34,925 bases of DNA, from the NCBI GenBank assembly GCA_016190305.1, contig JACPQU010000036.1, positions 1 through 34,925 of the forward strand. The letters run 5' to 3'. Position 1 is the stretch's first letter. Every line of letters starts with the position of its first letter. The position numbers and the translations under genes are program-made. The notes beneath the pieces are model-generated. The model was given only the letters and a program-made list of their open reading frames with translations, ran no database searches and was not told the DNA's origin. The DNA comes from Bacillota bacterium. Its GTDB lineage: Bacteria; Bacillota; JACPQU01. Shown here piece after piece: positions 10,239 to 31,700 of the stretch.

Positions 10239-11872
10239 TGGCTCTCCCCCGCCGCTACCAGGAGCAGGGCGTTAAGAGCGGCGGCGACCAGGGGGCTGCC
10301 GCCGCGCTCCCCCCTGATGGTGATGTAGGGAAGTCCGGAGGCAGCCAGGCGATCCTTGGACTCCCTGGCCCCCACGAACCCCACCGGGATCCCGATCACC
10401 AGGGCGGGCGGCTTCGCCGTGCCTTCCTCAACCAGGTCGATAAGCTCCTCCAGGGCCGTGGGAGCATTTCCGACCAGGACGATGCCCCCGCCGATTTCCC
10501 CCGCCAGCTTCCGCACGGCCATGGCGCTCCGGGTGCGCCCGGTCCGCTCGGCTTCCCCGGCCACCGCCGGGTCAGCCACGAGGCAAAGAGGCCGGCAGCC
10601 GAAGCGATCCATGAGCCTCCCATTCAGGGCCACCCGGACCATGTTCACGTCGGTCACCACCGCGCACCCCGCCCGGAGGGCCGCCACACCTCTATCCGCG
10701 GCGTCCGGCTGGAACTCCACCGCCCGTGCCAGCCCCAAGTCTCCGCTGGTGTGCACGATCCGCTCCACCACCGCCCGCTCGGCTTCCGAGAGGGGAAGGA
10801 TCCCCAGGTGCCCGCGGATGATCTCGAAGCTGCGACGGGAGATCCCCGCGGGATCCCGGATGGGTTCGTAGGTGGCGGGGCCGCCGTCGGGAGTTTGGGG
10901 CGGGGCGGCGGAGCCTTCGGATGATCCTGACCGGACGGCGGAGCCGCCGTCGGGAGACCCGGACCCGGCGGAAAGATCCGCGGCGGACGCCCGGGACCCG
11001 GAACCATCCGGCCCGGAACCACCCAGCCGGTATTTCCGGTCATATCCTCGCGGGGTGACCATCGCCTCTCCCACCCGGAAGGTGGTGGAGTTCCCGATGA
11101 TGATCGTGGTCTGCATGTCCACCGGAATCTCCGCCAGGCCGGCGAGATCGGCCGTTTCCACCTGCTGCCCCTCGCGGTAGGCACGCCTGACCACCCCGAC
11201 CGGCGTGGCAGGGTCAAGGTGCCGGAGGAGGATCCGCCGAGCCTCCTCCAGGGGCCCTTTTCTCTTACTGCTGGCCGGGTTGTAGAGGGCGATGACCAGA
11301 TCGGCCTTCGCCGCCAGTTCCAGGCGCTTGGCGATGGTTTCCCAAGGCGTCAGGAGGTCGCTCAGGCTGATCACCGCCATGTCGTTCATCAACGGCGCTC
11401 CCAGAAGGGCTCCCGCGGCAGCCGCGGCGGTGATCCCGGGGATCACCTCAATGGGCGGCGCCGGGACATCGGCGCCATCCGCAGCCAGGATCTCGTAAAC
11501 CAGGCCGGCCATCCCGTAAATGCCGGCATCGCCGCTGGAAACGAGGGCGACGGCCTGCCCCTCACGGGCCAGGGTCAAGGCCTTCCGCGCCCTTTCAACC
11601 TCGTCGCCCATCCTCCCGGAGTGGATCTCCTTGCCTTCAATGATCCCCGCAAGAAGGCGCAAGTAGGTGGTGTACCCCACAACCGCCTCGGCGCGGCGAA
11701 GGGCCTCCGCCGCTGCCGGGGTGATCTGAGCGGGCTCCCCGGGCCCGATTCCTACTATAAGAAGGCGTCCACCAGGATGGCTCCCACTCGGAAGACCCCC
11801 GTTATTTCCATTAGAAACGTCATTCCCGTCAAGACCACTATGTTCGCGATTCCCGCCAGGATCATCCCGCAT
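10235..11872 (-). CDS. cbiH-cbiC: Fusion of cobalt-factor III / precorrin-3B C17-methyltransferase (CbiH) and cobalt-precorrin-8 methylmutase (CbiC)
   Basis: The N-terminal half has the tetrapyrrole methylase signature (LLIVGIGPGEPAQITPAA...VSSGDAGIYGMAG...VIPGITAA). A Gly/Ser linker follows at about 10868-11026. The C-terminal half is CbiC/CobH-like (SFEIIRGHLG, HTSGDL, LVGNAPTAL, VIGIPVGFVGA.ESK). I chose ATG 11872, which has a GGAGGAGGAG RBS and overlaps the cbiFG stop by 11 nt. Confidence 0.85.
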   Translation of the reverse strand: MRDDPGGNREHSGLDGNDVSNGNNGGLPSGSHPGGRLLIVGIGPGEPAQITPAAAEALRRAEAVVGYTTYLRLLAGIIEGKEIHSGRMGDEVERARKALTLAREGQAVALVSSGDAGIYGMAGLVYEILAADGADVPAPPIEVIPGITAAAAAGALLGAPLMNDMAVISLSDLLTPWETIAKRLELAAKADLVIALYNPASSKRKGPLEEARRILLRHLDPATPVGVVRRAYREGQQVETADLAGLAEIPVDMQTTIIIGNSTTFRVGEAMVTPRGYDRKYRLGGSGPDGSGSRASAADLSAGSGSPDGGSAVRSGSSEGSAAPPQTPDGGPATYEPIRDPAGISRRSFEIIRGHLGILPLSEAERAVVERIVHTSGDLGLARAVEFQPDAADRGVAALRAGCAVVTDVNMVRVALNGRLMDRFGCRPLCLVADPAVAGEAERTGRTRSAMAVRKLAGEIGGGIVLVGNAPTALEELIDLVEEGTAKPPALVIGIPVGFVGARESKDRLAASGLPYITIRGERGGSPLVAAALNALLLVAAGESQ

Positions 11873-14180: not shown

Positions 14181-16738
14181 GACTCATGCTCCCGTTCTTC
14201 ATCTTCTCGCCGGTTTCCCAATTGACCGTGTTCCACCTGCCGGCTTTCTTCCCGCCGGCGAACCTGTGCCCGGGACGCACCCGTAACCACCAGCAGCGAG
14301 AAGTATTCGGGTTTCTTCCCCCGCAGAGCGCCGACATCCCTGGTCAGGTATTCCCATGGCGTGCCGCACCGCTCCACGTAGACCGCCCCATCGGCCAGAC
14401 CCTCGCGGTCGAGGAGATCGATCAGCGTATCCAGATGCTCCCCGAGCTTCATGATTACCACCGTCTCGAAGGCTTTCAGGGCCGCCTCGATCCTGGCCGG
14501 CCCGGCGCTCGCCGGCAGCACCGCCACCCCTTCGTCCTCCACGGCAAGCGGCAGGAGGGCCGCCGCCGAAGCAGCGGAGATGGAGGAGATCCCGGGGATC
14601 ACGCTGATCGGGGAGCCCGGGGAGAGCTGCTTGACCTCCTCGGCCAAGTAAGTCCAGGTGCTATACCAAGCGGGATCCCCTTCAGTCAAAAAGGCGCAAT
14701 GGTGGCCGCGGAGAAGCCGTTCGGCCACGCAGCGGGCCGCCTCCCGCCATGCCTCGGTCAGGGCGGCGCGGTCCCTGGTCATCGGGAAATCGAGGGGAAT
14801 CAACTCCTGCACGCCCGGGTGGAGGAGATCCTCCACCACCGACAAGGCGTAGCTCCGGTGAGCGCTCGACTTACGGGGAAAGCAGACGACCGGAACGTGG
14901 CTCAGGACCTCACGGGCCCCGACCGTCAGAAGGAACGGGTCCCCGGGCCCCACCCCGATCCCGATGAGGGACCCAGGCCCGACTGCCGGTTCTCCCTTCG
15001 CAACCTTTGCAGCATCCGAAACCTTTGTACCGTTTGCATCGTTCGCACCTATCGCACCCATTGCTTCCATCGCGTCCTGTTCTACCTCGTTCCCGGGATT
15101 GTCGATTCCGCATGTTCCGACCGGTCCCGTTCCCGTCGGCGTACCGAGGGTTCCCAGTGTTCCTGCTTCGCCTTGACCCGGGTTTCCCCTGGCGGCGACT
15201 TCGACGGTAGCGACTTCCCCGATGGCGGCTCCTTGCCCCTTTTCGGCCGTGATGATCCAGACCGGATCCAGGGCTTCGAACCGCGTCAGTCCCTGGAGGT
15301 CGCGCCCCCGGGAAACCTGCACCTGGATGACCTCCGGGGCGAAACCCGCTTCTTTGAGGGCTGCCAGGGTCTGATGCAGGGTCTCCACCGTTGCGGCGTT
15401 GACCGTCAGCCGGCCGCCGGGAGTCAAACGCGCAGCCGCTGTCCGCAGGATCTCCCGGAGACGCCCTCCCGAGCCGCCCACGAAGACGGCGTCCGGCGGC
15501 GGGGCTCCCTCGAAGGTCTCCGGCGCTTCCCCCTGCCTGATTTCCAGGTTGACGGCTCCGAAACGAGCCGCGTTGGCCCGGATGTGCTCCACCGCCTCCG
15601 GGTTCCGCTCAAAGGCGACCGCCCGGCCGCGCGGCGCGGCCAGGGCCGCTTCCACGGCCACCGACCCGGATCCGGCCCCCACGTCCCACACCACGCTGTC
15701 CTCGCGGAGACCCAGAGAGGCCAGACAGAGAATCCTCACCTCACGCTTGGTAATCATCCCCCGGCGCGGAGCGCGGAATTGAAACTCTTCATCACGGATC
15801 CCGGTGACTAGTCGGGCTGCGTTTTCGTTCGGACGGGCTGAGTTTCCGGGTCCGGCCCCGACGGGCCGGGCGGATAATTTCAACGCGGTGAGGTCGTCTT
15901 CGGCTTCGGACAACAGGCTGCCGGGAGCCGGCTTGAGGATCACGATGTTGGGATAATCGAAGCTTTCTTGGGCCATTATGCGCAAGGTCCCCTCCCAGAT
16001 CCGCTCTCTTTCTTCACTCCCGAGGCGCTCACACACGAAGGCAGGGCAGTCGGGCACCCCCCGGGAAAGGAGAAAAGAAGCCACGGCGGCCGGATTGTGC
16101 TTGTGATCGGTCAGGATGGCGAGTTTCCGGATGGCTGCGTTCCGGCCCGGCCCCTCGCCCGGTCCCCCGGTGGTTTCGCGAGTCAGTCCCGGATTCAGTC
16201 CCTGGGCCAGCCCCGCCAGTTCGTCCAGGGACCGCCCGTGGACGCTGAAGAAAGCCGCGTCTTCCCAGGTTTCCCCGATCCGCGCGAAGGCGAGCTGCAC
16301 CCAGCTCACCGCCGGAACGATCTCCACCTGTTCCCTTCCGAACTCGCGGAGCAGAAAGGAAGCGACCCCAAAGAAACCCGGATCCCCCGACGCCAGGACG
16401 ACGATCCTTCCATTCCCGGGGTCAGCCGGGCAGGTTTCAGCGTCGATTTCCGCGCGGGTTCCCATTCGGGTTTCGGCGCGGGTTTCCCGGATGGCCGCGG
16501 CCAGGCTGCCGAGGCCTGCGCGGATGGGCAGGCGGCGTCCCCCCGCATCGGGAAACATGTCCAGCAGGTACTGTCCTCCCGCCAGCAGCGAGGCCGAGAG
16601 CACCGCCTTCCGCCACCGGTCCCCCAGGGCAGACGGCCCGTCGGGGCCCACTCCAATGACCAGGATCTTTTCCGGAATCTTCTCCGGATCGCAGCTCCCT
16701 ATTTCTTCTTGACCGCCCGGCGCCTGATCAAAGCTCAA
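14177..16738 (-). CDS. cbiE-cbiT-cbiL: Triple fusion: cobalt-precorrin-7 C5-methyltransferase (CbiE), cobalt-precorrin-6B C15-methyltransferase/decarboxylase (CbiT) and cobalt-factor II C20-methyltransferase (CbiL)
   Basis: CbiE-like, about 15929-16669 (ILVIGVGPDG, VVLASGDPGFFG, IVPAVSW). CbiT-like SAM methylase, about 15239-15802 (ITKREVR, VWDVGAGSGSVAVEAA). Linker at about 14975-15238. CbiL-like, 14180-14974 (LIGIGVGPGDPFLLT, FLTEGDPAWYST, VIPGISS). GGGAGG RBS lies 7 nt before TTG 16738. Confidence 0.85.
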   Translation of the reverse strand: MSFDQAPGGQEEIGSCDPEKIPEKILVIGVGPDGPSALGDRWRKAVLSASLLAGGQYLLDMFPDAGGRRLPIRAGLGSLAAAIRETRAETRMGTRAEIDAETCPADPGNGRIVVLASGDPGFFGVASFLLREFGREQVEIVPAVSWVQLAFARIGETWEDAAFFSVHGRSLDELAGLAQGLNPGLTRETTGGPGEGPGRNAAIRKLAILTDHKHNPAAVASFLLSRGVPDCPAFVCERLGSEERERIWEGTLRIMAQESFDYPNIVILKPAPGSLLSEAEDDLTALKLSARPVGAGPGNSARPNENAARLVTGIRDEEFQFRAPRRGMITKREVRILCLASLGLREDSVVWDVGAGSGSVAVEAALAAPRGRAVAFERNPEAVEHIRANAARFGAVNLEIRQGEAPETFEGAPPPDAVFVGGSGGRLREILRTAAARLTPGGRLTVNAATVETLHQTLAALKEAGFAPEVIQVQVSRGRDLQGLTRFEALDPVWIITAEKGQGAAIGEVATVEVAARGNPGQGEAGTLGTLGTPTGTGPVGTCGIDNPGNEVEQDAMEAMGAIGANDANGTKVSDAAKVAKGEPAVGPGSLIGIGVGPGDPFLLTVGAREVLSHVPVVCFPRKSSAHRSYALSVVEDLLHPGVQELIPLDFPMTRDRAALTEAWREAARCVAERLLRGHHCAFLTEGDPAWYSTWTYLAEEVKQLSPGSPISVIPGISSISAASAAALLPLAVEDEGVAVLPASAGPARIEAALKAFETVVIMKLGEHLDTLIDLLDREGLADGAVYVERCGTPWEYLTRDVGALRGKKPEYFSLLVVTGASRAQVRRREESRQVEHGQLGNRREDEEREHES

Positions 16739-17882
16739 CAGTAGACCTCCCCAGGCCGGCGGATCCCGCCAGGATCGAACCGTCGAAACCGACGATCACC
16801 ACTTCCACCTCGACGGCCTCTCCCGCGTGTCCCGCCAGTCGCATGGCCGCCTGCCCGGCCAGCCGCCGGAAGGCGTCGCCCGCCCCCGCGGCGGCGATCA
16901 GTTCGGACGCCAGGCGGGCGGTTCCGGACTCCTCGATCAGGCGGGTCGTCTCCAGGCCGGCCCCGGCGGCGGAGGCCACATCGGCCAGCAGGCGGAAGGG
17001 CACCCGTCCTGCGTAGGCGTGGGTCTGAAAAATGCCGGCGGCCAGCTTGGAGATCTTACCGATCATCCCCCATACCGATACCCGGTCGAAACCCTTCCGG
17101 GCCGCTGCCTTTACCGCGTAGCCTGTGAAATCCCCGGCCACGACGAAGGCTTCCTCCGGAAGATCGATTCCAAACTCCTCCTGCGCCGCCCTGTCGCTGC
17201 GGCTCCCGGTGGTCAGCACCACCTTGCGGCAGCCCGATGCCCTGGCGACATCCAGGGCCCGGCTGACCGAGGCCCGGTAGGCGCCGGTGGAGTAGGGCAC
17301 CACGATCCCGGTCGTCCCCAGGATCGAGATCCCGCCCACGACCCCGAGCCGCGGGTTCATGGTCTTCTCGGCCAACCGCAGCCCTTCCGGCACCGAGACG
17401 ACCACCCTGGCTCCGGGCAGCAGGTCCTCCAGGGCCCGGGTGATCATCCGGCGCGGAACCGCGGTCACGGCCGGTTCGCCCACCGGGATCCCTAATCCCG
17501 GCTTGGTAACGGTTCCGACTCCCTCACCGGCCTCGATGGCGATCCCGGGGCCTTGCCCGGGAAATACCTCCGCCCTAATCTCGGCACCATGGGTCACGTC
17601 CGGATCATCCCCCGCGTCCTTGATCACCGAGGCCCAAGCCGACGCAGGAAAAGCAGCCTGTGCATCCACCCCCGGGAGGCCCACAGAGCCCAAGCCGCCG
17701 TCCCGGATCGGGATCACCGCCGAGTCCCCGCCCGGCAGAGTCACCTCCACCTCCGCGGGGGCCGCCCCGTCCCGGAGACAAATGGCCGCAGCCCTCGCGG
17801 CGGCGGCGGCGCAGGTGCCGGTGCTGTAACCGTAGCGGAGCTTTCTCCCCGCCGTCTCACCGGGCCTGGCTTTACGGGGCAT
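16728..17882 (-). CDS. cbiD: Cobalt-precorrin-5B C1-methyltransferase
   Basis: LRYGYSTGTCAAAAARAA N-terminal signature and GDDPDVTHG, ILGTTGIVVPYS motifs. I chose ATG 17882, 15 aa before LRYGYSTG and overlapping the hemA stop by 11 nt. ATG 17906 or 17900 are also possible. The track start at 18086 reads the hemA tail out of frame. Confidence 0.85.
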   Translation of the reverse strand: MPRKARPGETAGRKLRYGYSTGTCAAAAARAAAICLRDGAAPAEVEVTLPGGDSAVIPIRDGGLGSVGLPGVDAQAAFPASAWASVIKDAGDDPDVTHGAEIRAEVFPGQGPGIAIEAGEGVGTVTKPGLGIPVGEPAVTAVPRRMITRALEDLLPGARVVVSVPEGLRLAEKTMNPRLGVVGGISILGTTGIVVPYSTGAYRASVSRALDVARASGCRKVVLTTGSRSDRAAQEEFGIDLPEEAFVVAGDFTGYAVKAAARKGFDRVSVWGMIGKISKLAAGIFQTHAYAGRVPFRLLADVASAAGAGLETTRLIEESGTARLASELIAAAGAGDAFRRLAGQAAMRLAGHAGEAVEVEVVIVGFDGSILAGSAGLGRSTVEL

Positions 17883-19368
17883 CCCGCTCACCGCCTTCAT
17901 CCGCATCGCGGACCATACCCGAATCCGCGGGGCCCGTGTTTGTATCCAAACCCGTGCCCGGACCGGTGACGGTGCTCGATCCCGCGCCTGAACCGGTGCC
18001 TGGGTCCTGGCCTGGGTACGTGTCTGGGTCCTGGCCTGGGTACGTGTCTGGGCTCGTATCCGTGCCCATATCCTTGTCCAGCTCAAAGAGGCGGGAGACC
18101 ATCTCCAGACCCGCCGGGTACTCCCCCCCGGCAGAGGCCAGCTCTTTAAGAGCCTCCAGGGGGCCGCGGATGAACCCCTTCATCAGGGAGCGTGTGAACT
18201 GTTCGATCTTGGCCTGTTCCCGGGGGGAGAGGGCGGCCAGGTCCCGCTCGAAACGGCCGGTGGTGCGAAGCCGGAGTTCCTCCGCCCTCTCCCGGAGAGC
18301 CTTCAGGTAGGGGGCCACCTCGCGCTCGCGCCACCATTTCACGAAGGCCTCCGTTTCGGCCTCAACCAAGGCCTCCGCTTTCTCCGCCTCCGCCAACCGC
18401 TCCCGGTTGGAGTCCTCGACCACCCGGTGGAGGTCGTCGATATCGAACAGCCGGATTTGGCATTTCCCGTTCGGATCCAGTTCAGCCTCAACATCACGCT
18501 CCACGTCACGCGGAACCGCGATATCGATGAGGCAAAGGGGGGAGCGCCGTTCGCCGGCGACGCTGCGGAGCATGTCCCCGGTCACGACGTACCCCTGGGC
18601 GTTGGTGCAGCAGATCACAATGTCCGCCTCCGACAGGGCTTCCCGGAGAGAATCCCAGGATACGGGCGTCCCGCCCAGTTCCCCGGCCAGTTCCTCGGCC
18701 CTTTTCAGGTTCCGGTTCGCCACCAAGATCCTGCCGGCGCCGCGGTCGCGCATGAGACCGGCAGCCAGCCTGCCCATGGCCCCCGCACCCACCACCAGCA
18801 CCGTCCGGTCCGCCAGGTCACGGCCCCCTCCGCCTGTCACGGACCGGGCCAAGGCGACCGCCGCTCCCGGGATCGACGCCCGGCCGTTGTTGATCCCGGT
18901 CAGGGTCCGCACCCGTTTTCCCAGGGATAGGGCCCTCTGGAAGAGCCCGTTGAGCACCGCATCGGTGGCCCCGGCGCGGCCGGCCGCCATGTAAGCAGCC
19001 CGCACCTGTCCCAGGATCTCATCCTCCCCGAGCACCAGGGAGTCCAGGCCGGAAACGACCCTCAGCAAGTGCTCCACCGCCCGGGCGTTGGATAGGAGGG
19101 TCAGGTGAGTACGAAAAGAAGAATAGTCCAAACCCGACCGCCTGGAGAGATAACTGATCAACACCCGGAACCCCGCGTGGACCCGGGTCGCCAGGGCGTA
19201 GACCTCCACCCGGTTGCACGTGGAGAGGATGACGGCGGAACGTAGCTCCGGAGCCGCCTCGAGCAGGCGCCGCAACTCCGGCTCCATCTCTCCGGCCGGG
19301 ACCGAGAACTTCTCCCGCACCTCCACCGGCACCCGGTGGTGGCTCAAGCCCACCAGAACCAGGTCCAA
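17872..19368 (-). CDS. hemA: Glutamyl-tRNA reductase with a roughly 68-aa Gly/Thr/Pro/Asp-rich C-terminal tail
   Basis: MDLVLVGLSHHRVPVEVREKF...ILSTCNRVEVYA (catalytic Cys motif) and an NADPH-binding VLVVGAGAMG. TTG start with a GGAGGGGG RBS. Confidence 0.9.
   Translation of the reverse strand: MDLVLVGLSHHRVPVEVREKFSVPAGEMEPELRRLLEAAPELRSAVILSTCNRVEVYALATRVHAGFRVLISYLSRRSGLDYSSFRTHLTLLSNARAVEHLLRVVSGLDSLVLGEDEILGQVRAAYMAAGRAGATDAVLNGLFQRALSLGKRVRTLTGINNGRASIPGAAVALARSVTGGGGRDLADRTVLVVGAGAMGRLAAGLMRDRGAGRILVANRNLKRAEELAGELGGTPVSWDSLREALSEADIVICCTNAQGYVVTGDMLRSVAGERRSPLCLIDIAVPRDVERDVEAELDPNGKCQIRLFDIDDLHRVVEDSNRERLAEAEKAEALVEAETEAFVKWWREREVAPYLKALRERAEELRLRTTGRFERDLAALSPREQAKIEQFTRSLMKGFIRGPLEALKELASAGGEYPAGLEMVSRLFELDKDMGTDTSPDTYPGQDPDTYPGQDPGTGSGAGSSTVTGPGTGLDTNTGPADSGMVRDADEGGERDAP
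18001..18048. repeat. Perfect 24-bp x 2 tandem duplication (TGGGTCCTGGCCTGGGTACGTGTC), in frame inside the hemA tail (PDTYPGQD x 2)
   Basis: Read directly: 18001-18024 is identical to 18025-18048. A partial third start (TGGGCT) follows. Confidence 0.95.
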
Positions 19369-20079: not shown

Positions 20080-21147
20080 CTACCCCTCGATGGCCGTGGA
20101 AACCCCCGCCTCGCCGAAGGTGGCCATCTCCCTGATGATCCTGGCGGAGGCCTCCACCAGGTTCATGGCCAGGACGGCGCCTGTCCCCTCCCCGAGTCTC
20201 ATCCGCAACCGGAGCACCGGTTCCAGTCCCAGCAGTTCCAGGCAGATGCGGTGCCCGGGCTCCTCGGAGAGGTGAGAGGCGATCATGAAAGAGGTCGCTT
20301 CCCGCTTGATCCTGGCGGCGACCAGGGCGGCCGCCCCAGCGATGAAACCGTCGATGATGATCGGCACCCGCCGGGCCGCAGCCCCGAGGATCAATCCGGC
20401 CAGTCCCCCGATTTCGAAGCCGCCGAGGGCGGCCAGGACCGCGATCCCGTCCCTGGGATCCGGGCTGTTGGCGGCCAAAGCCCGTTCGACCACCGCAACT
20501 TTGTCCCGGCGGCGTTCCCCGTCGATCCCCGTGCCGGATCCGACCAGCGTCTGCACAGGCATCCCGGCGAAAGCGGCCGTGATAGCGCTGCTGGGGGTGG
20601 TGTTCCCGATCCCCATGTCCCCGGTGGCCAAAAGCGCGGCTCCTTTCTCGACCTCTGCCGAAGCCACCGCGATCCCGGCCTCCAGGGCGGCAACGGCGTC
20701 CTCCCTGTCCATCGCCGGGCCCGCGGCGATGTTCCGCGTACCAGGCCGGATCTTGCGCGACAAGACCGCGGGGTCGGCCACTTCCCCGGCCACTCCCATG
20801 TCCACCACGACCACCCGCGCTCCGGCCTGCCGGGCGAGGACGTTGATCCCTGCGCCGCCCCGGACGAAGTTGGCGATCATCTGGACGGTGACCTCCTGCG
20901 GGTAGGCCGATACGCCCTCGGCCGTCACCCCGTGGTCCCCGGCCATGACCACCACGGCCTTGTCCACCGGCCAGCCGGCAGGGGGAACGGTCTTCCCGCT
21001 GATCCCCGCCAGCTTCGCCGCCAGATCCTCTAGGACGCCCAGGCTCCCAAGGGGCTTGGTCAGGTTGTCGAGCCGTTTGCGCGCAGCCGCTATGGCCGAC
21101 CCATCCGGTTTGCCAATCTCCGCCAGCGTTCTTTCGAGCAATCTCAT
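20080..21147 (-). CDS. cobT: Nicotinate-nucleotide--dimethylbenzimidazole phosphoribosyltransferase
   Basis: LDNLTKPLGSLGVLEDLA, MAGDHGV, GDMGIGNTT and a glutamate-containing LRMRLGEGTGA motif typical of CobT. The ATG lies 4 nt after the upstream stop, with GGGAG inside the upstream gene. Confidence 0.9.
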   Translation of the reverse strand: MRLLERTLAEIGKPDGSAIAAARKRLDNLTKPLGSLGVLEDLAAKLAGISGKTVPPAGWPVDKAVVVMAGDHGVTAEGVSAYPQEVTVQMIANFVRGGAGINVLARQAGARVVVVDMGVAGEVADPAVLSRKIRPGTRNIAAGPAMDREDAVAALEAGIAVASAEVEKGAALLATGDMGIGNTTPSSAITAAFAGMPVQTLVGSGTGIDGERRRDKVAVVERALAANSPDPRDGIAVLAALGGFEIGGLAGLILGAAARRVPIIIDGFIAGAAALVAARIKREATSFMIASHLSEEPGHRICLELLGLEPVLRLRMRLGEGTGAVLAMNLVEASARIIREMATFGEAGVSTAIEG

Positions 21148-21151
21148 CCCG

Positions 21152-22543
21152 TCAGCTCCCTTGATTGGTTGTTTTCGATTCCGAGAGGCGGCGCTCCATA
21201 CTGCGGATCGCCGCCAGGGCCTTTAGCACATGGCGGCTTTCGACAAGGGGTGATCCTTCCTCCGCGGCCAGGTCACCCGCGGCCCTCACCAGCCCCCCCA
21301 GATCCCGCAAGCGCAAGGTGAGCCCGCCTTGGCTACCCGCCATCCGCCGCGCCTCCCCGATGATCTCTTCGAGCCCGCTCCGGTGAAAGGGCGGGATCCT
21401 CCCGTCTTTACCCACTTCCTGGGCCACGAAGATCGCCAGCTTGTACCTGTTGGCCGGCGAATCGGGCATAGTCTCCCGCAGCAAGACCTCGTATCCATAG
21501 CCCCTGATCCTGGACCTGAGCGCGGGATGGAGCCCGGCCACCGTTTCCTTGTTCCCGGCGGCGACCAGGAGGAACCGGCAGGGGACGGGCGCGGTCCGGA
21601 CCATGGCCCCTGCCGAGGTCTCGCTCTGCCCGGTGATGGCGAATTCCCCATCCTGGATGGCCGTGAGGAGCTGCTGCTGGGTGTGGCGTTCCAGGGTGCC
21701 GATCTCGTCGACGTAAAGAACCCCCAGGTGCGCCTTATGGATCAGGCCGGCTACCACCCGGATGTGGGGCGGGGTCCCCAGGCCTCCTGACTGGTAAGGG
21801 TCGTGGAGGACATCCCCCAGAAGCGCCCCGGCGTGGGCTCCGGATCCATCCCAGAAGGGCGCTCCTTCCCACCCTCCGTTGTCCACGATCAGGGCGGGCT
21901 GGGAGAGATCCGTGCGGTGCCCCCCTCCCGGACGCCCCTGCGCAAGGAGGAAGGCGAGCAGTCCAAAACCGGCTACGCCGCTCACGGCAAAAGAGAGGAA
22001 CATGATGGCTCCCACGGTGGGGGAGTAGGACGCGTTCCAGCGGGCGAAGGCCCACCACGGAGCCAGCGCCGCCAGGAGAAAGGCAAAGCCCAGGAAAAAC
22101 CAGCGGGCAGCTTTCCGTCGCCTCCGGATCCCTGGATCCGGGCCCCAAGGGAAGTCCGACACCGGATCGCCGCCGCCCCTGGCCTGGAACCGCCCGGTGT
22201 GGCGGCGTCCTTCCCCCGCCGGGACGACCCGAACCAGGGGCTGGAAGGGATCGTAAGGGTTCTGTTCTGCCAGAACGTCCACCAGGGGCTCCCGGGAGAG
22301 GAGATCCGAGAGGGCCTTCCCGAGCATGCTTTTGCCGGTGCCTGGCTCGCCGATCAGGAAGAGATGGCGTCGCTGCCGGGCGGCCCGCCTGAGAATCTCG
22401 ACCGCTTCCTCCTGTCCGATCACCTGCTCGACCAAGGCCGAAGGAATCCTGATGGAATCGGTCGTTTCCGGCAGGACGTACCCCGATGCCTCTTCCCCGC
22501 TATTCAGATCCGGCCCGTTCGCCGCCTTTTCCGTGTGCCCCAC
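21152..22543 (-). CDS. LonB-type AAA+ ATPase with an inserted transmembrane hairpin but no Lon protease domain
   Basis: Walker [11 protein letters not shown], Walker B VLYVDEIG, plus [63 protein letters not shown] and [17 protein letters not shown], all as in archaeal-type LonB. Two hydrophobic helices lie at about 21941-22105. The ORF ends right after the AAA lid helices, and cobT starts 4 nt later. Confidence 0.75.
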
Positions 22544-22615
22544 CCTTCCTGCCCCTTAACGCCCGTTCCGTTCGCCTTACACCTTCCTCCAGCGGATTAA
22601 TGTTTAACGTCAGCT

Positions 22616-23386
22616 TCACGCCTGTTCTTCCTTGCCGCCCTTCCATTCCCGGAGCCCGAAGCCCGGGTTAAGGAGGTAGTAACGGTTCGAGGGGTGGAAG
22701 ATGCCATCCGGCCCCGCCGAAGCCAGGGTCTCCCGCGTGAGAAGAGTCCTTCGATCCCACCAACCCTTTACCAAGGCTGAGGCCGCCGGCAACTCCTCCG
22801 GCCGGCCGGCCAGGCGCCCAATGGAGGAAAGGATCACGTAGAGCGAGAGGCCGACCGCCAGGGAGCGGATGGTCGAAGTTGTTGCAGCCCGCCCTGGCAA
22901 GATCTGATCCAGCTCTTTCCCTTGGGACTCCACCCGTTCCCCCACCAACAGCGCCTCGCGGCGAACCCCGTCAAGGTGCCGGTACCAGGATTCTAATACG
23001 CGGCGCTCCCGGTCCCGGAACGCGAGGGGGATCTCCCTGCCCCCGACCTTGGCCCTGAGTTCCGAAGCGGCCAGGTCCCGCAGTTGGCGGGTACAGCCCC
23101 CCAGCCCTCTCACCAGGGACAGGGCCCCCTTGACCGAGCCCCGATGGGGATCGCCGGGGGTGAACCAGATCGCCAGGCGGCGGAAGTAGAGGCTGGTCAT
23201 ATTAGCTCCCAGGCTTCGCTCCAGGCGGGAAAGGAAGCGAATTGCATCCTTTGTTGCTTGATCATCGCCGGCCGCCACAGTCCTTCCGAAGGGCGCGCTC
23301 CTTCGGAGCACAAGCCGCTCCCAGGTAACCCTGAAAGCCCGGGTACCCTTGTCCAAACCAGCCAGCCAGCGCTCCAGTTCCTCCAT
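22616..23386 (-). CDS. Hypothetical protein (256 aa), no family recognised
   Basis: The ORF is open from 23557, but that upstream part overlaps cbtB. ATG 23386 lies 19 nt after the cbtB stop. The region looks coding, with G/C-rich third positions. It has one weakly hydrophobic segment (IRSLAVGLSLYVILSSIG) and no motif I can name. Confidence 0.5.
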   Translation of the reverse strand: MEELERWLAGLDKGTRAFRVTWERLVLRRSAPFGRTVAAGDDQATKDAIRFLSRLERSLGANMTSLYFRRLAIWFTPGDPHRGSVKGALSLVRGLGGCTRQLRDLAASELRAKVGGREIPLAFRDRERRVLESWYRHLDGVRREALLVGERVESQGKELDQILPGRAATTSTIRSLAVGLSLYVILSSIGRLAGRPEELPAASALVKGWWDRRTLLTRETLASAGPDGIFHPSNRYYLLNPGFGLREWKGGKEEQA

Positions 23387-23405
23387 CCCGGCCCTGTCCC
23401 GCGAC

Positions 23406-23612
23406 TCAGTGGCAGCCGATGAATCCGGTGGCGTGCCTGAGTTCGTGGAAAAAGTCATGCGTGGCCGGGTACGCGGAAAAGAAGACGGCGTACAGGGCGG
23501 CGGCGAGGAAGACGGTGATGGCCACAACCTGGAACCTGGCCGAGAAAACGAAACCAAAGATGTTGACCTCCCTGAGCCTGGTCCTGGTGGCCTCCCTGAC
23601 AGCGTGAAACAC
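23406..23612 (-). CDS. cbtB: CbtB-like small membrane protein (putative cobalt transporter subunit)
   Basis: 68 aa with a basic N-terminus and one TM helix (IFGFVFSARFQVVAITVFLAAALYAVFF). The C-terminal THDFFHELRHATGFIGCH matches the H-D-x-x-H-(D/E)-x-R-H-x-x-G-F-x-C-H end of the CbtB family as I recall it. GGGGGGAG RBS lies 7 nt before the GTG. Confidence 0.75.
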   Translation of the reverse strand: MFHAVREATRTRLREVNIFGFVFSARFQVVAITVFLAAALYAVFFSAYPATHDFFHELRHATGFIGCH

Positions 23613-23796
23613 TGAACTGCTCCCCCCTATTTCGGTAGACTCTATTTCACCAGGCTATAATTTGGGCCGATCCGGTCAGCCGGCCCACCCATAAAAGCAA
23701 TATGTCGGTCAGGCATCGGATTACACATACCGGTTACGCCCACGCATACCGGGCACTATTTCTCCTACCAGGCCCGCTTCACGCATATGGGGACTG

Positions 23797-25041
23797 TCAC
23801 GCATATCGAGCAATGAATCGGCGCCGCTGGATCAGGGCCGCTGCAACGAACCCAAGAAGGAACGTCCCCATCAGCAAGGCCAAGTCCTTCAGGCGCCTCG
23901 CCAAGGTGGGCTGCACCGGGGCGATTCCCAGCTCCACCTGGCCCTCAAAGGGTTCAAAGGAGGTCGGATCCTCAGGTTCAGCGGGCCGAACCGAGATCCC
24001 CGCCGTGAACTCCTCTCCCTCGGGAAAGTGATAAAGAAACGTGGTTTGGCCCTGAGGGGCCAGGAGGCTGAGCTTGAACATTTTCTCCACCTGGCCATGT
24101 TCTTCCATAACCATCTCGACCTCGAGGAGGGCGCCGGAAAGCGGTTGCCCGTCGTCCCCGAAGACCTCCAGGTTCACCATTGCCGGGGCATCCATCCTGG
24201 GATCCGCGGGGGAAGTTTGCAGCCGGATCCGGCCCCCGGCCGTCTCGTGAAGTCCCAGTCCGGCTGGGTGCGGCTCGCCGTGGGCATGGACCACACCGGA
24301 GACCCCGCCGGCCGCCGACAGGAGTAAACCCTGGAGCAGGAGCAGGGTAAGGGCACCCCGTACGGCTCCGGGATTTGGGCCCGCAGAACTTCCCCTTTTC
24401 CAGCCCAGGAATTCCGGGCCATAGAGCCAGCCGACCACCAAACCGAAAAGCAGCAAACCGCCGAGAAGGAGGCCGCTCCACAGGAACTTCTGGGGATCTT
24501 CCCTGACGGCCACCTTGAATTCGTCCTGGCCAATGGGGGCAACCCCGGCTTGGCCTGGTTGACCCTCATCCGGTCCGGAACCATATGCCCTCACGTACAA
24601 GCCGTAGGTTCCACGGATGGGGAAGCGGAAATCCTCCAGCACCCACCTGCCCGCGGACACGGCGGTTGTGACCGACAGGATCCTGGAGCCCTCCAGGTAC
24701 GGAAGATCGGTCCCGATGATCCGCCGGCGGCTCCCGAGATGCCTGATCTCGACCTCCAGGGAAGCGTCCGGAGCCGGCGCACCGGTCCCCGCCTCCATAA
24801 CTTCGAAGACGAGGTCCCTGGTCTCCCCCGCGATTATGGGCAGGGTGGAATCATCGCCCGAACTGAACTTGACAACGTACTCTCCAGGGGCCGCAGCCAC
24901 CTCGGCCGAGACCGGCCTCGCAGCGTGGGATCCGGGGAGGCTGGTCGGAACGGCTTGCAGGAACAGGGCCAGGAAGACACCGGCGGCGATCAAAACCAGC
25001 TTGGACTGGGCGAAGCGAAACCAGGAGCAAACTCGAAACAC
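23797..25041 (-). CDS. Unknown 4-TM membrane protein with two extracytoplasmic beta-rich domains and an HAHGEPH-x7-H motif
   Basis: It is the first ORF after the riboswitch terminator. AAGGGGGAG RBS lies 7 nt before GTG 25041; the track start at 25089 sits in the terminator U-tract. Hydrophobic helices begin at aa 31, 203, 244 and 403 (track numbering). Internal repeat: LVFEVMEAGTGAPAPDASLEVEIRH versus VNLEVFGDDGQPLSGALLEVEMVMEEH. The His cluster is at 24247-24288. Confidence 0.6.
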   Translation of the reverse strand: MFRVCSWFRFAQSKLVLIAAGVFLALFLQAVPTSLPGSHAARPVSAEVAAAPGEYVVKFSSGDDSTLPIIAGETRDLVFEVMEAGTGAPAPDASLEVEIRHLGSRRRIIGTDLPYLEGSRILSVTTAVSAGRWVLEDFRFPIRGTYGLYVRAYGSGPDEGQPGQAGVAPIGQDEFKVAVREDPQKFLWSGLLLGGLLLFGLVVGWLYGPEFLGWKRGSSAGPNPGAVRGALTLLLLQGLLLSAAGGVSGVVHAHGEPHPAGLGLHETAGGRIRLQTSPADPRMDAPAMVNLEVFGDDGQPLSGALLEVEMVMEEHGQVEKMFKLSLLAPQGQTTFLYHFPEGEEFTAGISVRPAEPEDPTSFEPFEGQVELGIAPVQPTLARRLKDLALLMGTFLLGFVAAALIQRRRFIARYA

Positions 25042-25086
25042 GGTCAAACTCCCCCTTTTTTCCCGGTACCAAGAAGTCCACCGCGT

Positions 25087-25121
25087 CACGAAGAAAGCCC
25101 CCGACCATTTCGGTCGGGGGC
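25087..25121 (-). terminator. Intrinsic terminator forming the expression platform of the cobalamin riboswitch
   Basis: The minus strand reads GCCCCCGACC-gaaat-GGTCGGGGGC, a perfect 10-bp stem (25097-25121), followed by TTTCTTCGT. Confidence 0.7.
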
Positions 25122-25159
25122 CTGGTGTACGCGTAAGGAGTACCGGACCCTTCCTTCGA

Positions 25160-25352
25160 AGGTCGCGCTGGTACGTATGGGCGGGTAGGTCTCCTGGCTC
25201 CCGGATCCTCGCCTGCCGCCACGCCTTCCCGTTTCCGATCCGGAAACAGTGGCTCTATGGTCTTACGGCAGACAGGCTCCCCGGTTACAGTGGCGGGACC
25301 GCGCCGGACTCTCACCGGCTTCCCTTATTCACCCTCGAGGGGCACCCGACCA
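25160..25352 (-). promoter_or_regulatory. Cobalamin (B12) riboswitch aptamer
   Basis: The minus strand reads GAATAAGGGAAGCCGGTGAGAGTCCGGCGCGGTCCCGCCACTGTAACCGG (core at 25287-25324). A B12-box-like GAGCCAGGAGACCTACCC lies at 25183-25200. Both match the conserved cobalamin riboswitch elements. Confidence 0.88.
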
Positions 25353-25537
25353 ACTAGTTTTTTCAGTGAAGCTTGTACTTTTGGGTCTATCAGGCTCCTT
25401 TGTGCAATCTTTCGTCCCAAACCCAATTCTACCTCCGGATCCAAAAAGGATCAAGGGATCGGGTAGTTACATAAAATCCCATCCGGCTTCCTGCGAGTCT
25501 TGCGAATCAAGGAGACAAGATTCGAGTTGAAAAATCG

Positions 25538-27326: not shown

Positions 27327-27629
27327 CCAAAATTCCCCCAGTTTACCCCATACCAAACAGAAAAGAGAAAGGTGCGATATTCGGCCTGCAGTATTGCCAC
27401 AGAAATTCTTCAGATGGAATTGTTGAAATGAATAGGCTGGTTTTAGGAGTTCGGGTAAAAAGACTTGTCGCCTACGGAAACTGCATGGTAAATTCAGGCA
27501 ACTCTAAACAGAGGAAGGCAACTGGCATTGAGATTCTTTACCGGTATTGCAGGACGGGTACAGCGAATGCAAATGGAAGACAGGCCATAGAGTTATCGAC
27601 AAGCAAGATATTCAGAGGGGGTCAAGAGA

Positions 27630-28208
27630 ATGGCCAGGACGTGGCAAGGCGCGATCATCCACCATTCGGCTTCTCCAGCCTCTACGACCACTATGGCCGA
27701 TATCGACCGCTGGCACCGGGAGCGCGGTTGGCGGGGGATCGGATACCACTGGGGGATCTACCCCACCGGCCAGGTGGAGCGCGGGCGCCCGGATGATCAA
27801 GACGGAGCCCATGCGGGGCAACCGTGGAACCGGACGCACCTGGGGATCGTGCTTATCGGAAACTTCGAACATCAGCCGCCGACCTCAGAACAGTACCAAG
27901 CCCTTCGGGATTTGTTGGACCGCCTTGAATTCGGCCGGGAAAAGGTCAAGCTCCACCGAGGCGTGTCGGCCACCTCCTGCCCTGGTAGACTCTTTGAGTT
28001 TGAACAAGTCTGGAGAGAGGCCGGCGTTCAGCCGGGACCCGCCAGGATTCGCGTCTTCGTCGCCGACCAGGAACTTAACACTCAGGCCGTAAGGGTCGAA
28101 GGCAAGATTTACCTGCCTATCCGAGACGTGGGCGAGGCCTTGGGCGCCCGGGTGCACTGGGAGCGCGTCGGCGGGGAGGAGATTGTCCGAATCGAGCCCG
28201 GGCTCTAA
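27630..28208 (+). CDS. N-acetylmuramoyl-L-alanine amidase (Amidase_2/PGRP fold) with a C-terminal copper-amine-oxidase-N-like stalk domain
   Basis: GAIIHHSAS...IDRWHRERGWRGIGYHW..GAHAG..WNRTHLGIVLIGNF...HRGVSATSCPG are Amidase_2 Zn-site motifs. The C-terminal VRVEGKIYLPIRDVGEALGARVHWE is typical of the Cu_amine_oxidN1 domain. AGAGGGGG RBS precedes the ATG. Confidence 0.8.
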   Translation: MARTWQGAIIHHSASPASTTTMADIDRWHRERGWRGIGYHWGIYPTGQVERGRPDDQDGAHAGQPWNRTHLGIVLIGNFEHQPPTSEQYQALRDLLDRLEFGREKVKLHRGVSATSCPGRLFEFEQVWREAGVQPGPARIRVFVADQELNTQAVRVEGKIYLPIRDVGEALGARVHWERVGGEEIVRIEPGL

Positions 28209-28754
28209 CCGGAGCGGGTTGCTCCCAGAATGGTTAGTCTTGTCCCGAGTTCACACACCATTCACACACCAAACACCTGTTTGGATTTGGATGGCAGGTT
28301 ATGTACTTGTACAGGTGGTAAAAGATCCGCTGCTCTCGCGAGACCCCTCTTAGTCCTTGCTGCGTCTGGGTCGTGGCTCATGGATAATATCCCAAGTTGG
28401 TTGAGTTTGGCCTAATCTTGGCAGGTTGCACGATTAGGGACAAGGAGCGCATTGCAGTGCCGGAAATGGATAGGACATTGGAAAGCATTTTTAGACTTCA
28501 CCACCCAATCTTGGAGACTGAATTGGGAGGGGAGTCCGGGGTGGGAGAAGAACTCTGCGGCATAACGGGTCGATCATCAGCCTTTGAGCCGATCCGGCAG
28601 GCCATATCGTCCGGGGCCTGAAGTTCCGTCACACCGGCTGGGTATTGAATCGCCCCCGGCCTTTATGGGGGAGCCAAAGGGCAACGGGTCACCTAGTCTT
28701 CGTCTTAGGTATAGCGTAGTACGACATCTACATGACTGTATGCGGAGGTCAGTC

Positions 28755-31700
28755 ATGGTAACCCAAAAAGGATCATCTGACGATCAAACAAACTGGAAAT
28801 CACCGCAGAATTCTAAGGAACTGGAGAACGAGTTTGAAGAGGCTGCTCTCTTTCCGGTGGTCGGCATCGGCGCTTCCGCGGGCGGCCTGGGTGCTGTCAA
28901 GAAACTACTGGAGCACTTACCCTCCGACACCGGGCTGGCGTTCCTGTTCGTTCAACACCTCGACCCACAACAGCCCAGCTATCTGGCCAGCATCCTAGCC
29001 AAGGTCACGCCAATGCCGGTCATCGAAGCCTCCACCGGTCTGGCGGTGCGCCCTAATCACCTCTATGTGATCCCGCCCGGCAGCAACTTGACTCTCGCAC
29101 AGGGCATCCTGTACGTGACACCGCGCGGCGTTGGACCCGGCCCATACTATACAATCGATCACCTGTTCCAAACTCTGGCTATAGATCAATCGGCGTTGGC
29201 GATTGGGGTTGTGCTCTCCGGTGGGGGTTTTGATGGCACTGTTGGGCTACGTGCGATCAAGGAGGCAGGGGGGATCACCTTTGCGCAGGACGAGATGTCC
29301 GCCGAGCACCCCGACATGCCGCGCAACGCCATCGATAACGGTTACGTGGATTACGTCCTGGCACCCGAGGCGATCGCGCAGCGCCTGGCGGAGATCAGAA
29401 CCCACCTTCACCTGATGTCCGAATCCCGAGTCGAGGTCTCCGAGGCGGACGACCAGGTATTCAGGGCGATCCTCAGGATGGTGCGTTCGTTCGCCGGCGT
29501 CGATTTCAGTCTTTATCGGGATACCACCATCCGACGGAGGATCATGCGCCGTATGGCTATCCGTTCGAGACGCTCGCTATCTGACTATTACCAGTTGCTC
29601 AAGGCGGAGCGGACGGAAGTCGAGGCGCTGTACCACGACTCGCTGATCAACGTGACCTCCTTCTTTCGCGAGCCCGATATGGGCGATGCTCTCAAGACTA
29701 TTGTCTTCCCCAGACTGGTAGAAGGTAAATCCTCCTCGATGCCCTTGCGCATCTGGGTTCCGGGGTGTTCCACCGGCCAAGAGCCCTACTCACTGGCCAT
29801 AGCTCTTTTGGAGTTTTACGATGATAGGCACGGACGGCCACCAGTTCTGATCTTCGCCACCGACGTCAATGAGAGCGTACTGCAGAAGGCCCGTGCCGGC
29901 GTCTATCCCGAGAGCATCGAGGCTGAGGTGTCTCCGGGTCGGTTGCGCCGATTTTTTCATAAAGAGGATCACTTATATCGAATCGACCAGTCGGTCCGTG
30001 ACCTATGTATTTTCGGGCGGCAGAACATAACGGCTGATCCGCCCTTCTCCCATCTCGATCTGATCAGTTGTCGCAATTTGTTTATTTACCTCGCGACTCC
30101 GGTGCAGAAGCGGGTCGTACCCTTGTTTCATTACGCCCTGAATGTCCCGGGCTTTCTTGTGCTCGGGTCAGCCGAGTCGGTAGGTGAGCACACAGATTTG
30201 TTTGAGGTGATAGATCGAAAGTACAAGATCTATGCCAAGAAGACTACAGGGGCCTCGCGAATTTTGGACCTCGCTGTCGGCGATAAGCAATCCGGGTTAG
30301 CCATAGCCACCCGGTGGCCAGACTCGACCGGGTCCAGCCCACCGGGTTTCCAAAGAGAGGCCGACCGCATTCTGCTGCGCCGCTTCACCCCACCGGGCGT
30401 GCTTGTCAACGAAAATCTTGACATTGTGCGGTTTCATGGACAAACCAGCCCATACCTCGGGCCTCCACCCGGTGAGCCGACGATGAACCTGCTCAAGATG
30501 GTTCGCACAGACTTGTTCACGGCGCTTCGCAGAGCCCTTGCCGAGTCCAAGGAACATAAGCGGCCCGCCCGCCACGACGGCATACGCCTGCGTGCCAACG
30601 GAGGGAAGCGCGTAATCAGCGTGGAGACCATACCCATCACATCCGCAGGAGCAGAGGTGGCGGACCGGTGCTTTCTGGTCCTGTTCCATGAAGTCGAGTC
30701 GAGCCACCCTGGGTCTCTTCCCCCCGACCAGGACGCAAGAGCCCAAGCCGCAGCTGCCGTGGAAGAAAGCGTCAAGAAAGAGGGCGAGCATCCAGCCTTC
30801 GAGGAAGGGTCCGAGGTGGCCGTCCTACGGCAAGAGCTTGCGACTGCTAAAGAGTATTTGCAGGCGATGATGGAACAGCAGGACGCGGTCAATGAGGAGT
30901 TGCGTTCGGCTAACGAGGAGATCCTCTCGAGCAACGAAGAACTCCAGAGCACCAACGAGGAGCTGGAAACTTCCAAAGAAGAACTGCAGTCTACCAACGA
31001 AGAGCTAATAACGGTGAATGAACGACTCCAGTATATTAACGGGGAGTTGGACAAGACCAACAATGATTTGATCAACCTCTTGGCGAGCACCCAGATCCCG
31101 GTCATCATGATCGGGCGCGACCTGCGTATCCGACGGTTCACGGAATCAGCCAAGGAAACCTTTAACCTGGTGTCCAAGGATGTCGGCCGGTCTATCCGCT
31201 ACTTAAATGAAGCGGTGCCAATGACCGATTTCGAGGAGTTGGTGAGCAAGGTTGTCGCCGAGGTGCAGCCTTTGGAGCAAGAGGTCCGGGCTAGAAACGA
31301 TCATTGGTATGTCCTGCGCATCTACCCCTATTTGACCACGGATCACAAGATCGACGGGGCTGTCGTCGTACTCCTGGATATCGACGCCCTAAAGCGAACC
31401 GAGAATGAACTACGAGCTGCTGAGGAGCGCCTGCGCTCTGTTATGGACAAGGTTGTGAACGGGATCATCACCACGGACAAAGGCGGGCACATTCAGTCGT
31501 TCAACCCTGCTGCGGAAAGACTCTTCGGTTACAGTCGCTCCGAAGCCATCGGTCAGAACGCCAAGGTTCTTCTGTACGAATTCGACCAGAGTGAGGATGA
31601 GGGTGTCCGCAGCAATAACGGAGAAAACTGGCAGACGACGATCCTTGGTGGCTGGCATGAGGTCACCGGCAAGCGCAAAGACGGGTCCACCTTTCCAATG

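Follow-up and report, generated by a model that had tools for sequence, protein, structure and literature searches.

A four-gene module between a cobalamin riboswitch and a B12 operon

Within a 34,925-nt stretch of a Bacillota bacterium genome (GenBank assembly GCA_016190305.1, contig JACPQU010000036.1; hereafter the window), we analyzed four genes that lie between a cobalamin riboswitch and a cobalamin (B12) biosynthesis array, all of them on the reverse strand. In the direction of transcription these are P1 (23797-25041, 414 amino acids [aa]), a CbtB-like gene with a PF09489 match (23406-23612, 68 aa), P3 (22616-23386, 256 aa) and P4 (21152-22543, 463 aa), a LonB-type AAA+ ATPase gene without a protease domain. 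P1 begins with a GTG codon that has a AAAAAAGGGGGAG ribosome-binding site just upstream, and the stop codon of P4 is separated by a 4-nt gap from cobT (20080-21147, reverse strand; nicotinate-nucleotide--dimethylbenzimidazole phosphoribosyltransferase, TIGR03160, 443 bits), the first gene of a B12 array reaching down to position 834. An earlier note, made from the letters of this DNA, had described four open reading frames (ORFs) running in this way into cobT and the cob array, and the layout was borne out. Codon log-odds of the four ORFs were positive in the stated frame only, including both halves of the 256-aa ORF, and codon-position G+C of all four (∼0.67 to 0.70, 0.48 to 0.53, and 0.75 to 0.80 for the three long ones) matched the pattern of the window.

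The riboswitch aptamer (RF00174; 25167-25364, reverse strand) scored 108.6 bits over model positions 1 to 189 of 189 (gathering threshold, 31.5; E = 1.6e-26), and no other RNA family was found in an Rfam scan of 22500-25500. It is followed on the same strand by a terminator-like expression platform (25090-25123), a 12-bp GC-rich hairpin at 25095-25123 and then UUCUU. The hairpin has a predicted folding energy of -35.2 kcal/mol (z = -6.25) that none of 200 shuffled sequences equalled; its U-tract is weak, and it was absent from the list of a simple terminator scan. The riboswitch and terminator that had been reported ahead of the four genes were thus both found. A sigma-70-like promoter (25454-25426, reverse strand; TTGATC, 17-nt spacer, TAGAAT) can be read ∼60 nt upstream of the riboswitch, a call that is a consensus match only, with 1 site found versus 0.6 expected in shuffles.

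The cbtB gene is paired with that of a membrane protein of an unnamed family

The 68-aa protein matched PF09489 at E = 1.6e-5 and 25.4 bits (gathering score, 27) and TIGR02459 at E = 1.2e-3 and 19.3 bits (cut-off, 64.4), matches that are significant but short of the respective cut-off. A profile built from homologues at the loci described below recognized it at E = 1.6e-20, and the CbtB homologues of related loci carry precomputed PF09489 matches. The size of the protein, its single helix, its C-terminal His/Cys-rich motif and its B12-regulated locus are all those of a CbtB. Hydropathy analysis gave a positively charged N terminus, one membrane helix at residues 29 to 47 and a C-terminal HDFFHELRHATGFIGCH motif, which is predicted from the charge distribution to face outward. 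The gene starts 184 nt downstream of P1.

P1 had no family match in Pfam (2025 copy), NCBIfam (2026) or a PDB sequence search, and a word-index search returned P1 itself only. An exhaustive phmmer search recovered 75 representatives at E ≤ 1e-3 (best E, 1e-12), mostly of 370 to 420 aa and aligning end to end, together with some half-size proteins that match either half and have a signal peptide followed by A-H-x-H. From our own alignments (A1 to A3) we defined a family with a duplicated layout: an anchor or signal helix, a beta domain, a helix, a short basic loop, a helix, A-H-x-H, a beta domain and a helix. The profile of this family scores P1 at E = 1.7e-83, a value that is circular because P1 itself is in the profile. 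The N-domain signature of the family is (S)TDFPxVEG...FPIRGxY, and the C-domain carries H-[IV]-E-D-D and QFFDGAxH. In the window protein, the signature is kept in domain 1 as GTDLPYLEG...FPIRGTY (TD-P--EG and FPIRGTY), and a His cluster, HAHGEPH, stands after helix 3 at residues 252 to 258 (nt 24268-24288). An AlphaFold2 (AF2) model built with the family alignment (predicted local distance difference test [pLDDT], 82.9; predicted template modeling score [pTM], 0.80) has helices at residues 2 to 30, 183 to 211, 225 to 246, and 380 to 413 and beta domains at 55 to 180 and 263 to 371; by charge distribution, both beta domains would face outward. Judged by its sequence, P1 is a divergent member of this unnamed four-helix, two-beta-sandwich family.

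CbtA is described as a five-helix polytopic membrane protein without large soluble domains, and P1 was rejected as a CbtA: neither PF09490 nor TIGR02458 matched it at E ≤ 1 or any of 32 relatives at E ≤ 0.01, and it has four helices and two beta-sandwiches of ∼110 to 125 residues instead of five helices. Pfam and NCBIfam scans of the relatives gave scattered immunoglobulin (Ig)-like or YtkA-like matches only. Among these, PF13115 (YtkA-like) matched 6 of 32 family members at E ≤ 0.01 (best E, 6.5e-7), and its score for domain 2 of P1 (E = 0.23, 12.6 bits) was below the cut-off of 25.9. P1 shares with YtkA-like/FixH-type and CopC/PCuAC-type proteins the membrane-tethered, outward Ig-like beta-sandwiches and, in the A-H-x-H of the half-size members, a His-rich stretch right behind a signal-peptide-like helix. 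It differs from them in that the PF13115 matches are weak and limited to part of the family, while the two-domain, four-helix architecture and the linkage to cbtB are specific to the P1 family. A Foldseek search of the P1 model against the PDB returned generic tandem Ig, arrestin and Vps26-like matches only (TM-score, ∼0.2), from which no function was inferred. In GenBank, a Scytonema homologue of P1 is a "hypothetical protein," and the adjoining cbtB is unannotated.

The pair and a protease-less LonB ATPase recur in other lineages

Scanning with the family alignment gave 237 stretches in genomes, of which the best 80 loci were kept (nearly all from cyanobacteria, plus two metagenome-assembled genomes [MAGs] of uncultured bacteria), and 246 stretches in metagenomes, of which 80 loci were likewise kept. 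These were narrow pattern-based scans ranked by similarity, and the fractions given here describe those samples rather than all genomes; single loci are cited by number. In profile searches, 77 of the 80 loci from genomes and 71 of the 80 from metagenomes had a same-strand cbtB within 600 bp of the P1 homologue (148/160 pooled). A LonB-type AAA gene (LonAAA) lay just downstream in 2/80 and 31/80 loci, respectively, where many metagenome contigs stop before any downstream gene could show. The Lon protease domain had no match in any fetched locus, and each of the 17 LonAAA ORFs that run to a stop does so no more than 26 residues past the lid alignment. The cbtB gene and the P1 family are therefore a conserved pair in cyanobacteria, Tectomicrobia, Chloroflexota and the lineage of the window, and a protease-less, membrane-anchored LonB ATPase, with or without a HEAT-repeat domain, is a conserved third component outside the cyanobacteria. 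The earlier note had staked its proposal on the unassigned genes being linked to cbtB, B12 riboswitches or cob genes elsewhere, and such linkage was found for two of the three, the P1 family and the protease-less LonB; it was not found for the 256-aa ORF.

Regulation and operon context are conserved along with the genes. RF00174 is directly upstream of cbtB in 19 of the 20 cbtB-P1-LonAAA metagenome loci scanned, the twentieth being incomplete, and also in one MAG (L037), in five cyanobacterial loci (L031, L039, L051, L070, and L074) and in L112, L115, L118, and L127. In three loci, L037, L165 ("Candidatus Entotheonella palauensis") and L170 (a Chloroflexi MAG), the full gene set heads a B12 operon with cbiX, cbiC, cbiD and methyltransferase genes, and the named relatives of the LonAAA-type loci belong to Tectomicrobia/Entotheonella and Chloroflexota. 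In L001 and L112 the genes stand in the order P1, cbtB, HEAT, LonAAA, as in the window, where P3 takes the slot that the HEAT-repeat domain holds in other loci.

The clearest metal-uptake setting of the module is L167 (5497-13460), where genes for Fur, CbtB, the N-half of P1 (183 aa), its C-half (203 aa) and a HEAT-LonAAA fusion (697 aa) are followed by those for a signal peptide-bearing 114-aa protein that contains AHGD, another Fur, and CbiM, CbiN, CbiQ and CbiO. The cyanobacterial loci are flanked by genes that we take, reading their N termini by eye, to encode NRAMP-type and heavy-metal P-type ATPase-like transporters; one such neighbor is named "manganese transport protein" in GenBank.

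The metal served by the module might be copper, nickel or another one, or its role might be metal resistance. The YtkA-like domain found in 6 of 32 P1 family members, which we presume to be copper-associated, would fit this, as would the opposite-strand YtkA and multicopper-oxidase genes near the module in L166 and the ability of CbiMNQO-type systems to carry nickel. We nevertheless regard this explanation as very unlikely: most LonAAA-type loci have a B12 riboswitch immediately ahead of the genes, which, like the placement in cob operons, fits a B12-specific need, and a system switched off when B12 is plentiful fits uptake and not efflux.

P4 is a LonB ATPase that has lost its protease

P4 matched TIGR00764 (LonB) at 454.8 bits (cut-off, 516.6), an alignment that reaches only position 400 of the 608 in the model, and the Thermococcus onnurineus LonB structure (PDB 3K1J) at E = 1e-121, with the query aligned up to residue 455. 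Walker A (residues 65 to 72), Walker B (275 to 282), AAGN (328 to 331) and RSRIRGYG (343 to 350) are present, the stretch between the two Walker motifs contains a membrane hairpin (helices 149 to 167 and 182 to 200), and PF20436, the LonB AAA lid, matched at E = 1.2e-9. PF05362 (Lon_C) gave no match in P4, whose ORF stops 8 residues past the lid alignment. From these matches, P4 is unmistakably a LonB AAA+ module with intact ATPase motifs and without the protease domain, as had been claimed earlier. We rejected its assignment as a Mg-chelatase or sigma-54 activator: the corresponding Mg_chelatase and Sigma54 Pfam matches span short, generic P-loop stretches, while the LonB match covers the whole length. 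The source gene call for 21152-22543 is 283 aa long (61% of the query) and starts inside the membrane hairpin, omitting the N-terminal 180 residues, which carry Walker A and match LonB well.

A profile made from ten protease-less ATPases retrieved more than 100 clusters, in size classes of 400 to 430 aa and 615 to 650 aa; in the larger class the extra N-terminal ∼230 residues are a HEAT-repeat domain (PF13646). PF05362 was found in none of roughly the first hundred members of this clade, which go by public names as different as "sigma 54-interacting transcriptional regulator," "LonB, partial," "AAA family ATPase," "MoxR-like ATPase" and "hypothetical." In the Chloroflexi MAG (L170, 4446-6368), the deposited LonAAA call starts at 5001 and is too short; an in-frame HEAT region (E = 4.6e-23, HEAT profile) extends the gene to 4446.

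LonB is known as an archaeal membrane quality-control protease. P4 is 53 to 57% identical to archaeal LonB and has in common with it (TIGR00764, 3K1J) the membrane hairpin, both Walker motifs, the PF20436 lid and the region of the arginine finger; it differs in that the whole of Lon_C is gone, which would leave no protease activity of its own, in its place in a bacterial B12 operon and in the N-terminal HEAT fusion of related loci. An ATPase is likewise encoded with metal-cofactor genes in the CobS/CobT pair of CobNST, in ChlI/ChlD and in MoxR-type NorQ/CbbQ systems, and by this likeness P4 may act by ATP-driven remodeling of a metal-handling partner. Unlike these, P4 is of Lon and not of MoxR/chelatase descent, is membrane anchored and has no von Willebrand factor A (vWA) partner; its operon, in contrast to CobNST, uses the ATP-independent CbiX.

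The established quality-control function of archaeal LonB raises the question of whether the ATPase is instead a general membrane quality-control or stress chaperone that travels with CbtB and P1 or regulates their turnover and takes no part in moving metal, with these two functional alone. This would accommodate the 78 of 80 genome loci, mainly cyanobacterial, that carry cbtB-P1 without LonAAA, as well as the protease-less LonB genes found without cbtB beside HSP20 and TatA genes (L164 and L168) or with split HEAT ORFs (L163). In L164 (6001-7870) and L168 (3036-5286) a protease-less LonB of ∼430 aa lies beside HSP20, TatA and GGDEF genes, which suggests a stress-related role for this subgroup. 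Of the 12 contexts viewed from the ATPase side, 9 have cbtB and a P1 homologue (L001, L037, L125, L162, L165, L166, L167, L169, and L170). Against a general chaperone, the genes abut or overlap in many loci, and a single riboswitch stands over them in 19 loci. The packing moreover spans Tectomicrobia, Chloroflexota and the window lineage and apparently two LonB lineages, and such tight packing across phyla argues for a dedicated role of the ATPase and makes a general chaperone improbable.

The 256-aa ORF appears specific to the lineage of the window

P3 had no meaningful match in Pfam, NCBIfam or PDB sequences and no tblastn match in the loci fetched up to that search. Since the HEAT-repeat domain holds its slot elsewhere, P3 was compared with it, and neither hmmsearch (no match) nor hhalign (probability, 0.1%) connected the two. 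A single-sequence AF2 model was mostly helical and unreliable (pLDDT 45). The suggestion that this orphan belongs to the conserved module was therefore not supported, and we treat P3 as a lineage-specific coding gene connected with the module by position alone. We also rejected a decayed CbtA, given the clean codon signal of P3, at most one borderline hydrophobic segment and no family match. In L163 (5277-7245), the HEAT part is split over two short ORFs, of 148 and 98 aa, that immediately precede the LonAAA gene; the HEAT part can thus be a free-standing protein, like P3 in the window.

If P4 were a decayed, horizontally acquired archaeal gene and P3 a spurious ORF, both would be functionless remnants. 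The best matches of P4 are indeed full-length LonB proteins of DPANN archaea (53 to 57% identity, and 52 to 58% over trimmed alignment columns, compared with only 42 to 49% to bacterial protease-less LonB), P3 lacks relatives, and the source gene call of P4 is only 283 aa long. We consider this scarcely credible, because the 463-codon frame is intact with all AAA+ motifs conserved, codon usage is normal in both genes, the truncation falls exactly at a domain boundary as in the more than 100 other protease-less clusters, and protease-less LonB genes accompany cbtB and P1 elsewhere, too.

The downstream operon and other features of the window

The genes after cobT encode a small CbiX, HemA, CbiD, CbiET-CbiL, CbiF-CbiG, CbiH-CbiC, CobU, CobQ, CbiB, and CbiA, and the array ends with cobS, a GHMP kinase gene, cobD and cobC; this is an anaerobic-type cobalamin pathway. 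No CbtA, CbiMNQO, NiCoT or HupE was found among the 24 long window ORFs scanned with NCBIfam and/or Pfam. The remaining long ORF (27591-28205, forward strand) is, as we judge by eye from its translation, cell-wall amidase-like. The window, as had been stated, therefore holds no recognized cobalt importer.

Several enzymes of the array are fused (10235-16738, reverse strand): CbiE-CbiT-CbiL (853 aa), CbiF-CbiG (772 aa) and CbiH-CbiC (565 aa). The profile matches of CobQ (663 aa) and CobU (272 aa) are split in two stretches, which suggests insertions. The HemA ORF (17872-19368, reverse strand) has a ∼60-aa low-complexity tail rich in D, P, G and T (DTSPDTYPGQDPDTYPGQDPGTGSGAGSS...) and so overlaps with the beginning of the cbiD ORF. 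The GHMP-family kinase between cobS and cobD (2748-3917, reverse strand; 389 aa) matched PF00288 and PF08544 and no NCBIfam model; by position it may be a PduX-type L-threonine kinase feeding CobD.

Four copies of a 13-nt CACGCATACCGGG-like motif, spaced by 18 to 39 nt, occupy 23722-23810 in and next to the 184-nt P1-cbtB spacer; Rfam had no match over this stretch, and the copies may represent a small repeat or a site for protein binding. Elsewhere in the window, which has a G+C content of 64%, are a gene for a D-Ala-D-Ala carboxypeptidase, which like the riboswitch accords with a bacterial source, and one for a 1,447-aa protein (28584-32927, forward strand) with a CheB-like methylesterase region, PAS domains and a hybrid histidine kinase/receiver, unrelated to the module. 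Other RNAs seen near the module in the fetched loci were a divergent thiamine pyrophosphate (TPP) riboswitch (L108, 7198-7313), a fluoride riboswitch (L118, 993-1072) and three matches to the IsrR antisense RNA (L039, 1924-5710).

A candidate cobalt-acquisition system

Taken together, the riboswitch, the placement in a de novo B12 operon, the Fur/CbiMNQO context of L167 and the metal-type motifs lead us to read the module as a B12-repressed cobalt-acquisition system heading an anaerobic-pathway cobalamin operon, to which we assign a probability of roughly 0.6. The cobalt reading put forward earlier is partly upheld, in that the P1 family and the LonB ATPase are linked to cbtB; the 256-aa ORF drops out of it, and not every protease-less LonB is cobalt linked.

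The closest known system is CbtAB, a candidate cobalt transporter predicted by comparative genomics of B12 regulons and counted among the predicted ones in a 2009 survey (PMC2667541). Both have a one-helix CbtB of ∼60 to 70 aa with a C-terminal His/Cys motif, cobalamin-riboswitch control and cob neighbors, and for CbtAB (PF09489/PF09490), as for the module, the function is a prediction. The module differs in its partner protein, which is not CbtA: P1 is without a PF09490 match and combines four helices with two beta-sandwich domains, where five helices are described for CbtA. It also differs in its variable gene order (mostly cbtB-P1, with P1-cbtB in the window, L001, and L112) and in the ATPase that is often present as a third component.

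We propose that when adenosylcobalamin is scarce, the riboswitch would permit transcription and CbtB (one helix) and P1 (four helices) would form a small membrane complex in which P1 stands in for the canonical CbtA. Outward His/Cys/acidic sites, that is, the C-terminal H-x3-H-x3-H...C-H of CbtB, the HxH after helix 3 of P1 and the conserved acidic/His motifs of the beta-sandwiches, may capture Co(II), which would then be moved across the membrane or delivered to it. At the cytoplasmic face, a LonB-derived hexamer might use ATP for the assembly, remodeling or gating of this complex or hand cobalt on toward CbiX; it would not degrade a substrate. P3 could serve as an adaptor of the ATPase, as HEAT elsewhere may; this is a guess.

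The same genes could handle corrinoids rather than free metal, with the beta-sandwich domains binding cobinamide or cobamides for salvage. Cobalamin riboswitches often control corrinoid uptake, many surface or periplasmic proteins under their control bind corrinoids for salvage, and the cobalt role of CbtB is itself only predicted. In L116 and L118, moreover, the module is followed by a gene for the cobinamide amidohydrolase CbiZ (corrinoid salvage), and in L115 by one for what we take, by eye, to be a BtuF-like protein. We think corrinoid handling unlikely: the conserved short His/Cys/acidic clusters are typical of metal sites, Fur and CbiMNQO accompany the module in L167 and the presumed NRAMP and P-type ATPase-like transporters do so in cyanobacteria, the operons headed by the module are for de novo synthesis and thus require cobalt, and no BtuCD-type permease is consistently linked.

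Besides the CbiZ and BtuF-like neighbors, several observations weigh against a cobalt-acquisition system. Some concern the window proteins: its CbtB remains below the Pfam gathering cut-off (25.4 versus 27), and its P1 is equally far from every family subgroup and has HFPEGEEF in place of the QFFDGAxH of the C-domain, so that D-G-A-x-H is lost, with the Asp conservatively changed and the His gone. P4 groups with archaeal full-length LonB, and not with the cbtB-linked clade, in a neighbor-joining tree and may not be orthologous to that clade. Either the bacterial clade is fast evolving or LonB was independently recruited and truncated in the lineage of the window, two possibilities between which a midpoint-rooted neighbor-joining distance tree cannot choose; with independent recruitment, the association would have arisen convergently and carry more weight. 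Others concern the related loci: the seven Nostocales loci that were scanned (L002, L003, L010, L015, L020, L025, and L041) gave no riboswitch match at the gathering threshold, so that their cbtB-P1 regulation may differ from that in Leptolyngbya, Synechococcales, Altericista and Chroococcopsis; a group of noncyanobacterial loci without LonAAA gave none either, and 3 of the 12 protease-less LonB contexts (L163, L164, and L168) lack cbtB and P1. More generally, the cobalt role of CbtB, CbtA and the P1 family is a prediction from genomic context only, we know of no precedent for a cytoplasmic unfoldase aiding metal passage across a membrane, and the rest of the genome, beyond the window, may hold a canonical importer.

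A bolder version of the cobalt-acquisition reading makes the protease-less LonB hexamer the energy-coupling subunit of a new metal importer or delivery machine, which would hold CbtB and P1 by their cytoplasmic tails, with HEAT or P3 as the adaptor, and by ATP-driven pulling bring Co(II) from the outward His/Cys sites across the membrane or straight to the CbiX chelatase; the system would then have been put together two or more times, with LonB proteins of different lineages. We offer this as a speculation with the odds clearly against it; if true, it would be the first AAA+ unfoldase in metal transport and a missing cobalt route for the anaerobic B12 pathway.

The P1 family and the cbtB-P1-LonAAA arrangement are absent from Pfam (2025 copy) and NCBIfam (2026), from the table of cobalt uptake systems in a 2021 review, which gives CbtJKL, CbiMNQO, NiCoT (NhlF), HupE and CorA (PMC7689651), and from the 2009 survey, which has no "other predicted" cobalt transporter in cyanobacteria (PMC2667541). 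A literature search for LonB with a cobalamin riboswitch, or for protease-less Lon, found nothing relevant. As far as checked, therefore, the description of the module as new holds, with no Pfam or NCBIfam model, only "hypothetical protein" as a GenBank name and no entry in the two cobalt surveys. What is new is a CbtB partner family and an unexpected ATPase in a putative B12-regulated cobalt-supply module, the known kind being the predicted CbtAB.

The route by which cobalt enters the B12 pathway is a gap in many producers, and the module is a widespread, testable candidate for it, often under a B12 riboswitch. The P1 family is a regular partner of CbtB and is present in the genetically tractable Nostoc, Anabaena and Leptolyngbya. 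A sizeable and inconsistently annotated clade of Lon ATPases has lost its protease and is linked to metal-cofactor operons. These findings may bear on B12 production strains, on the prediction of environmental B12 makers and on the reuse of AAA+ machines.

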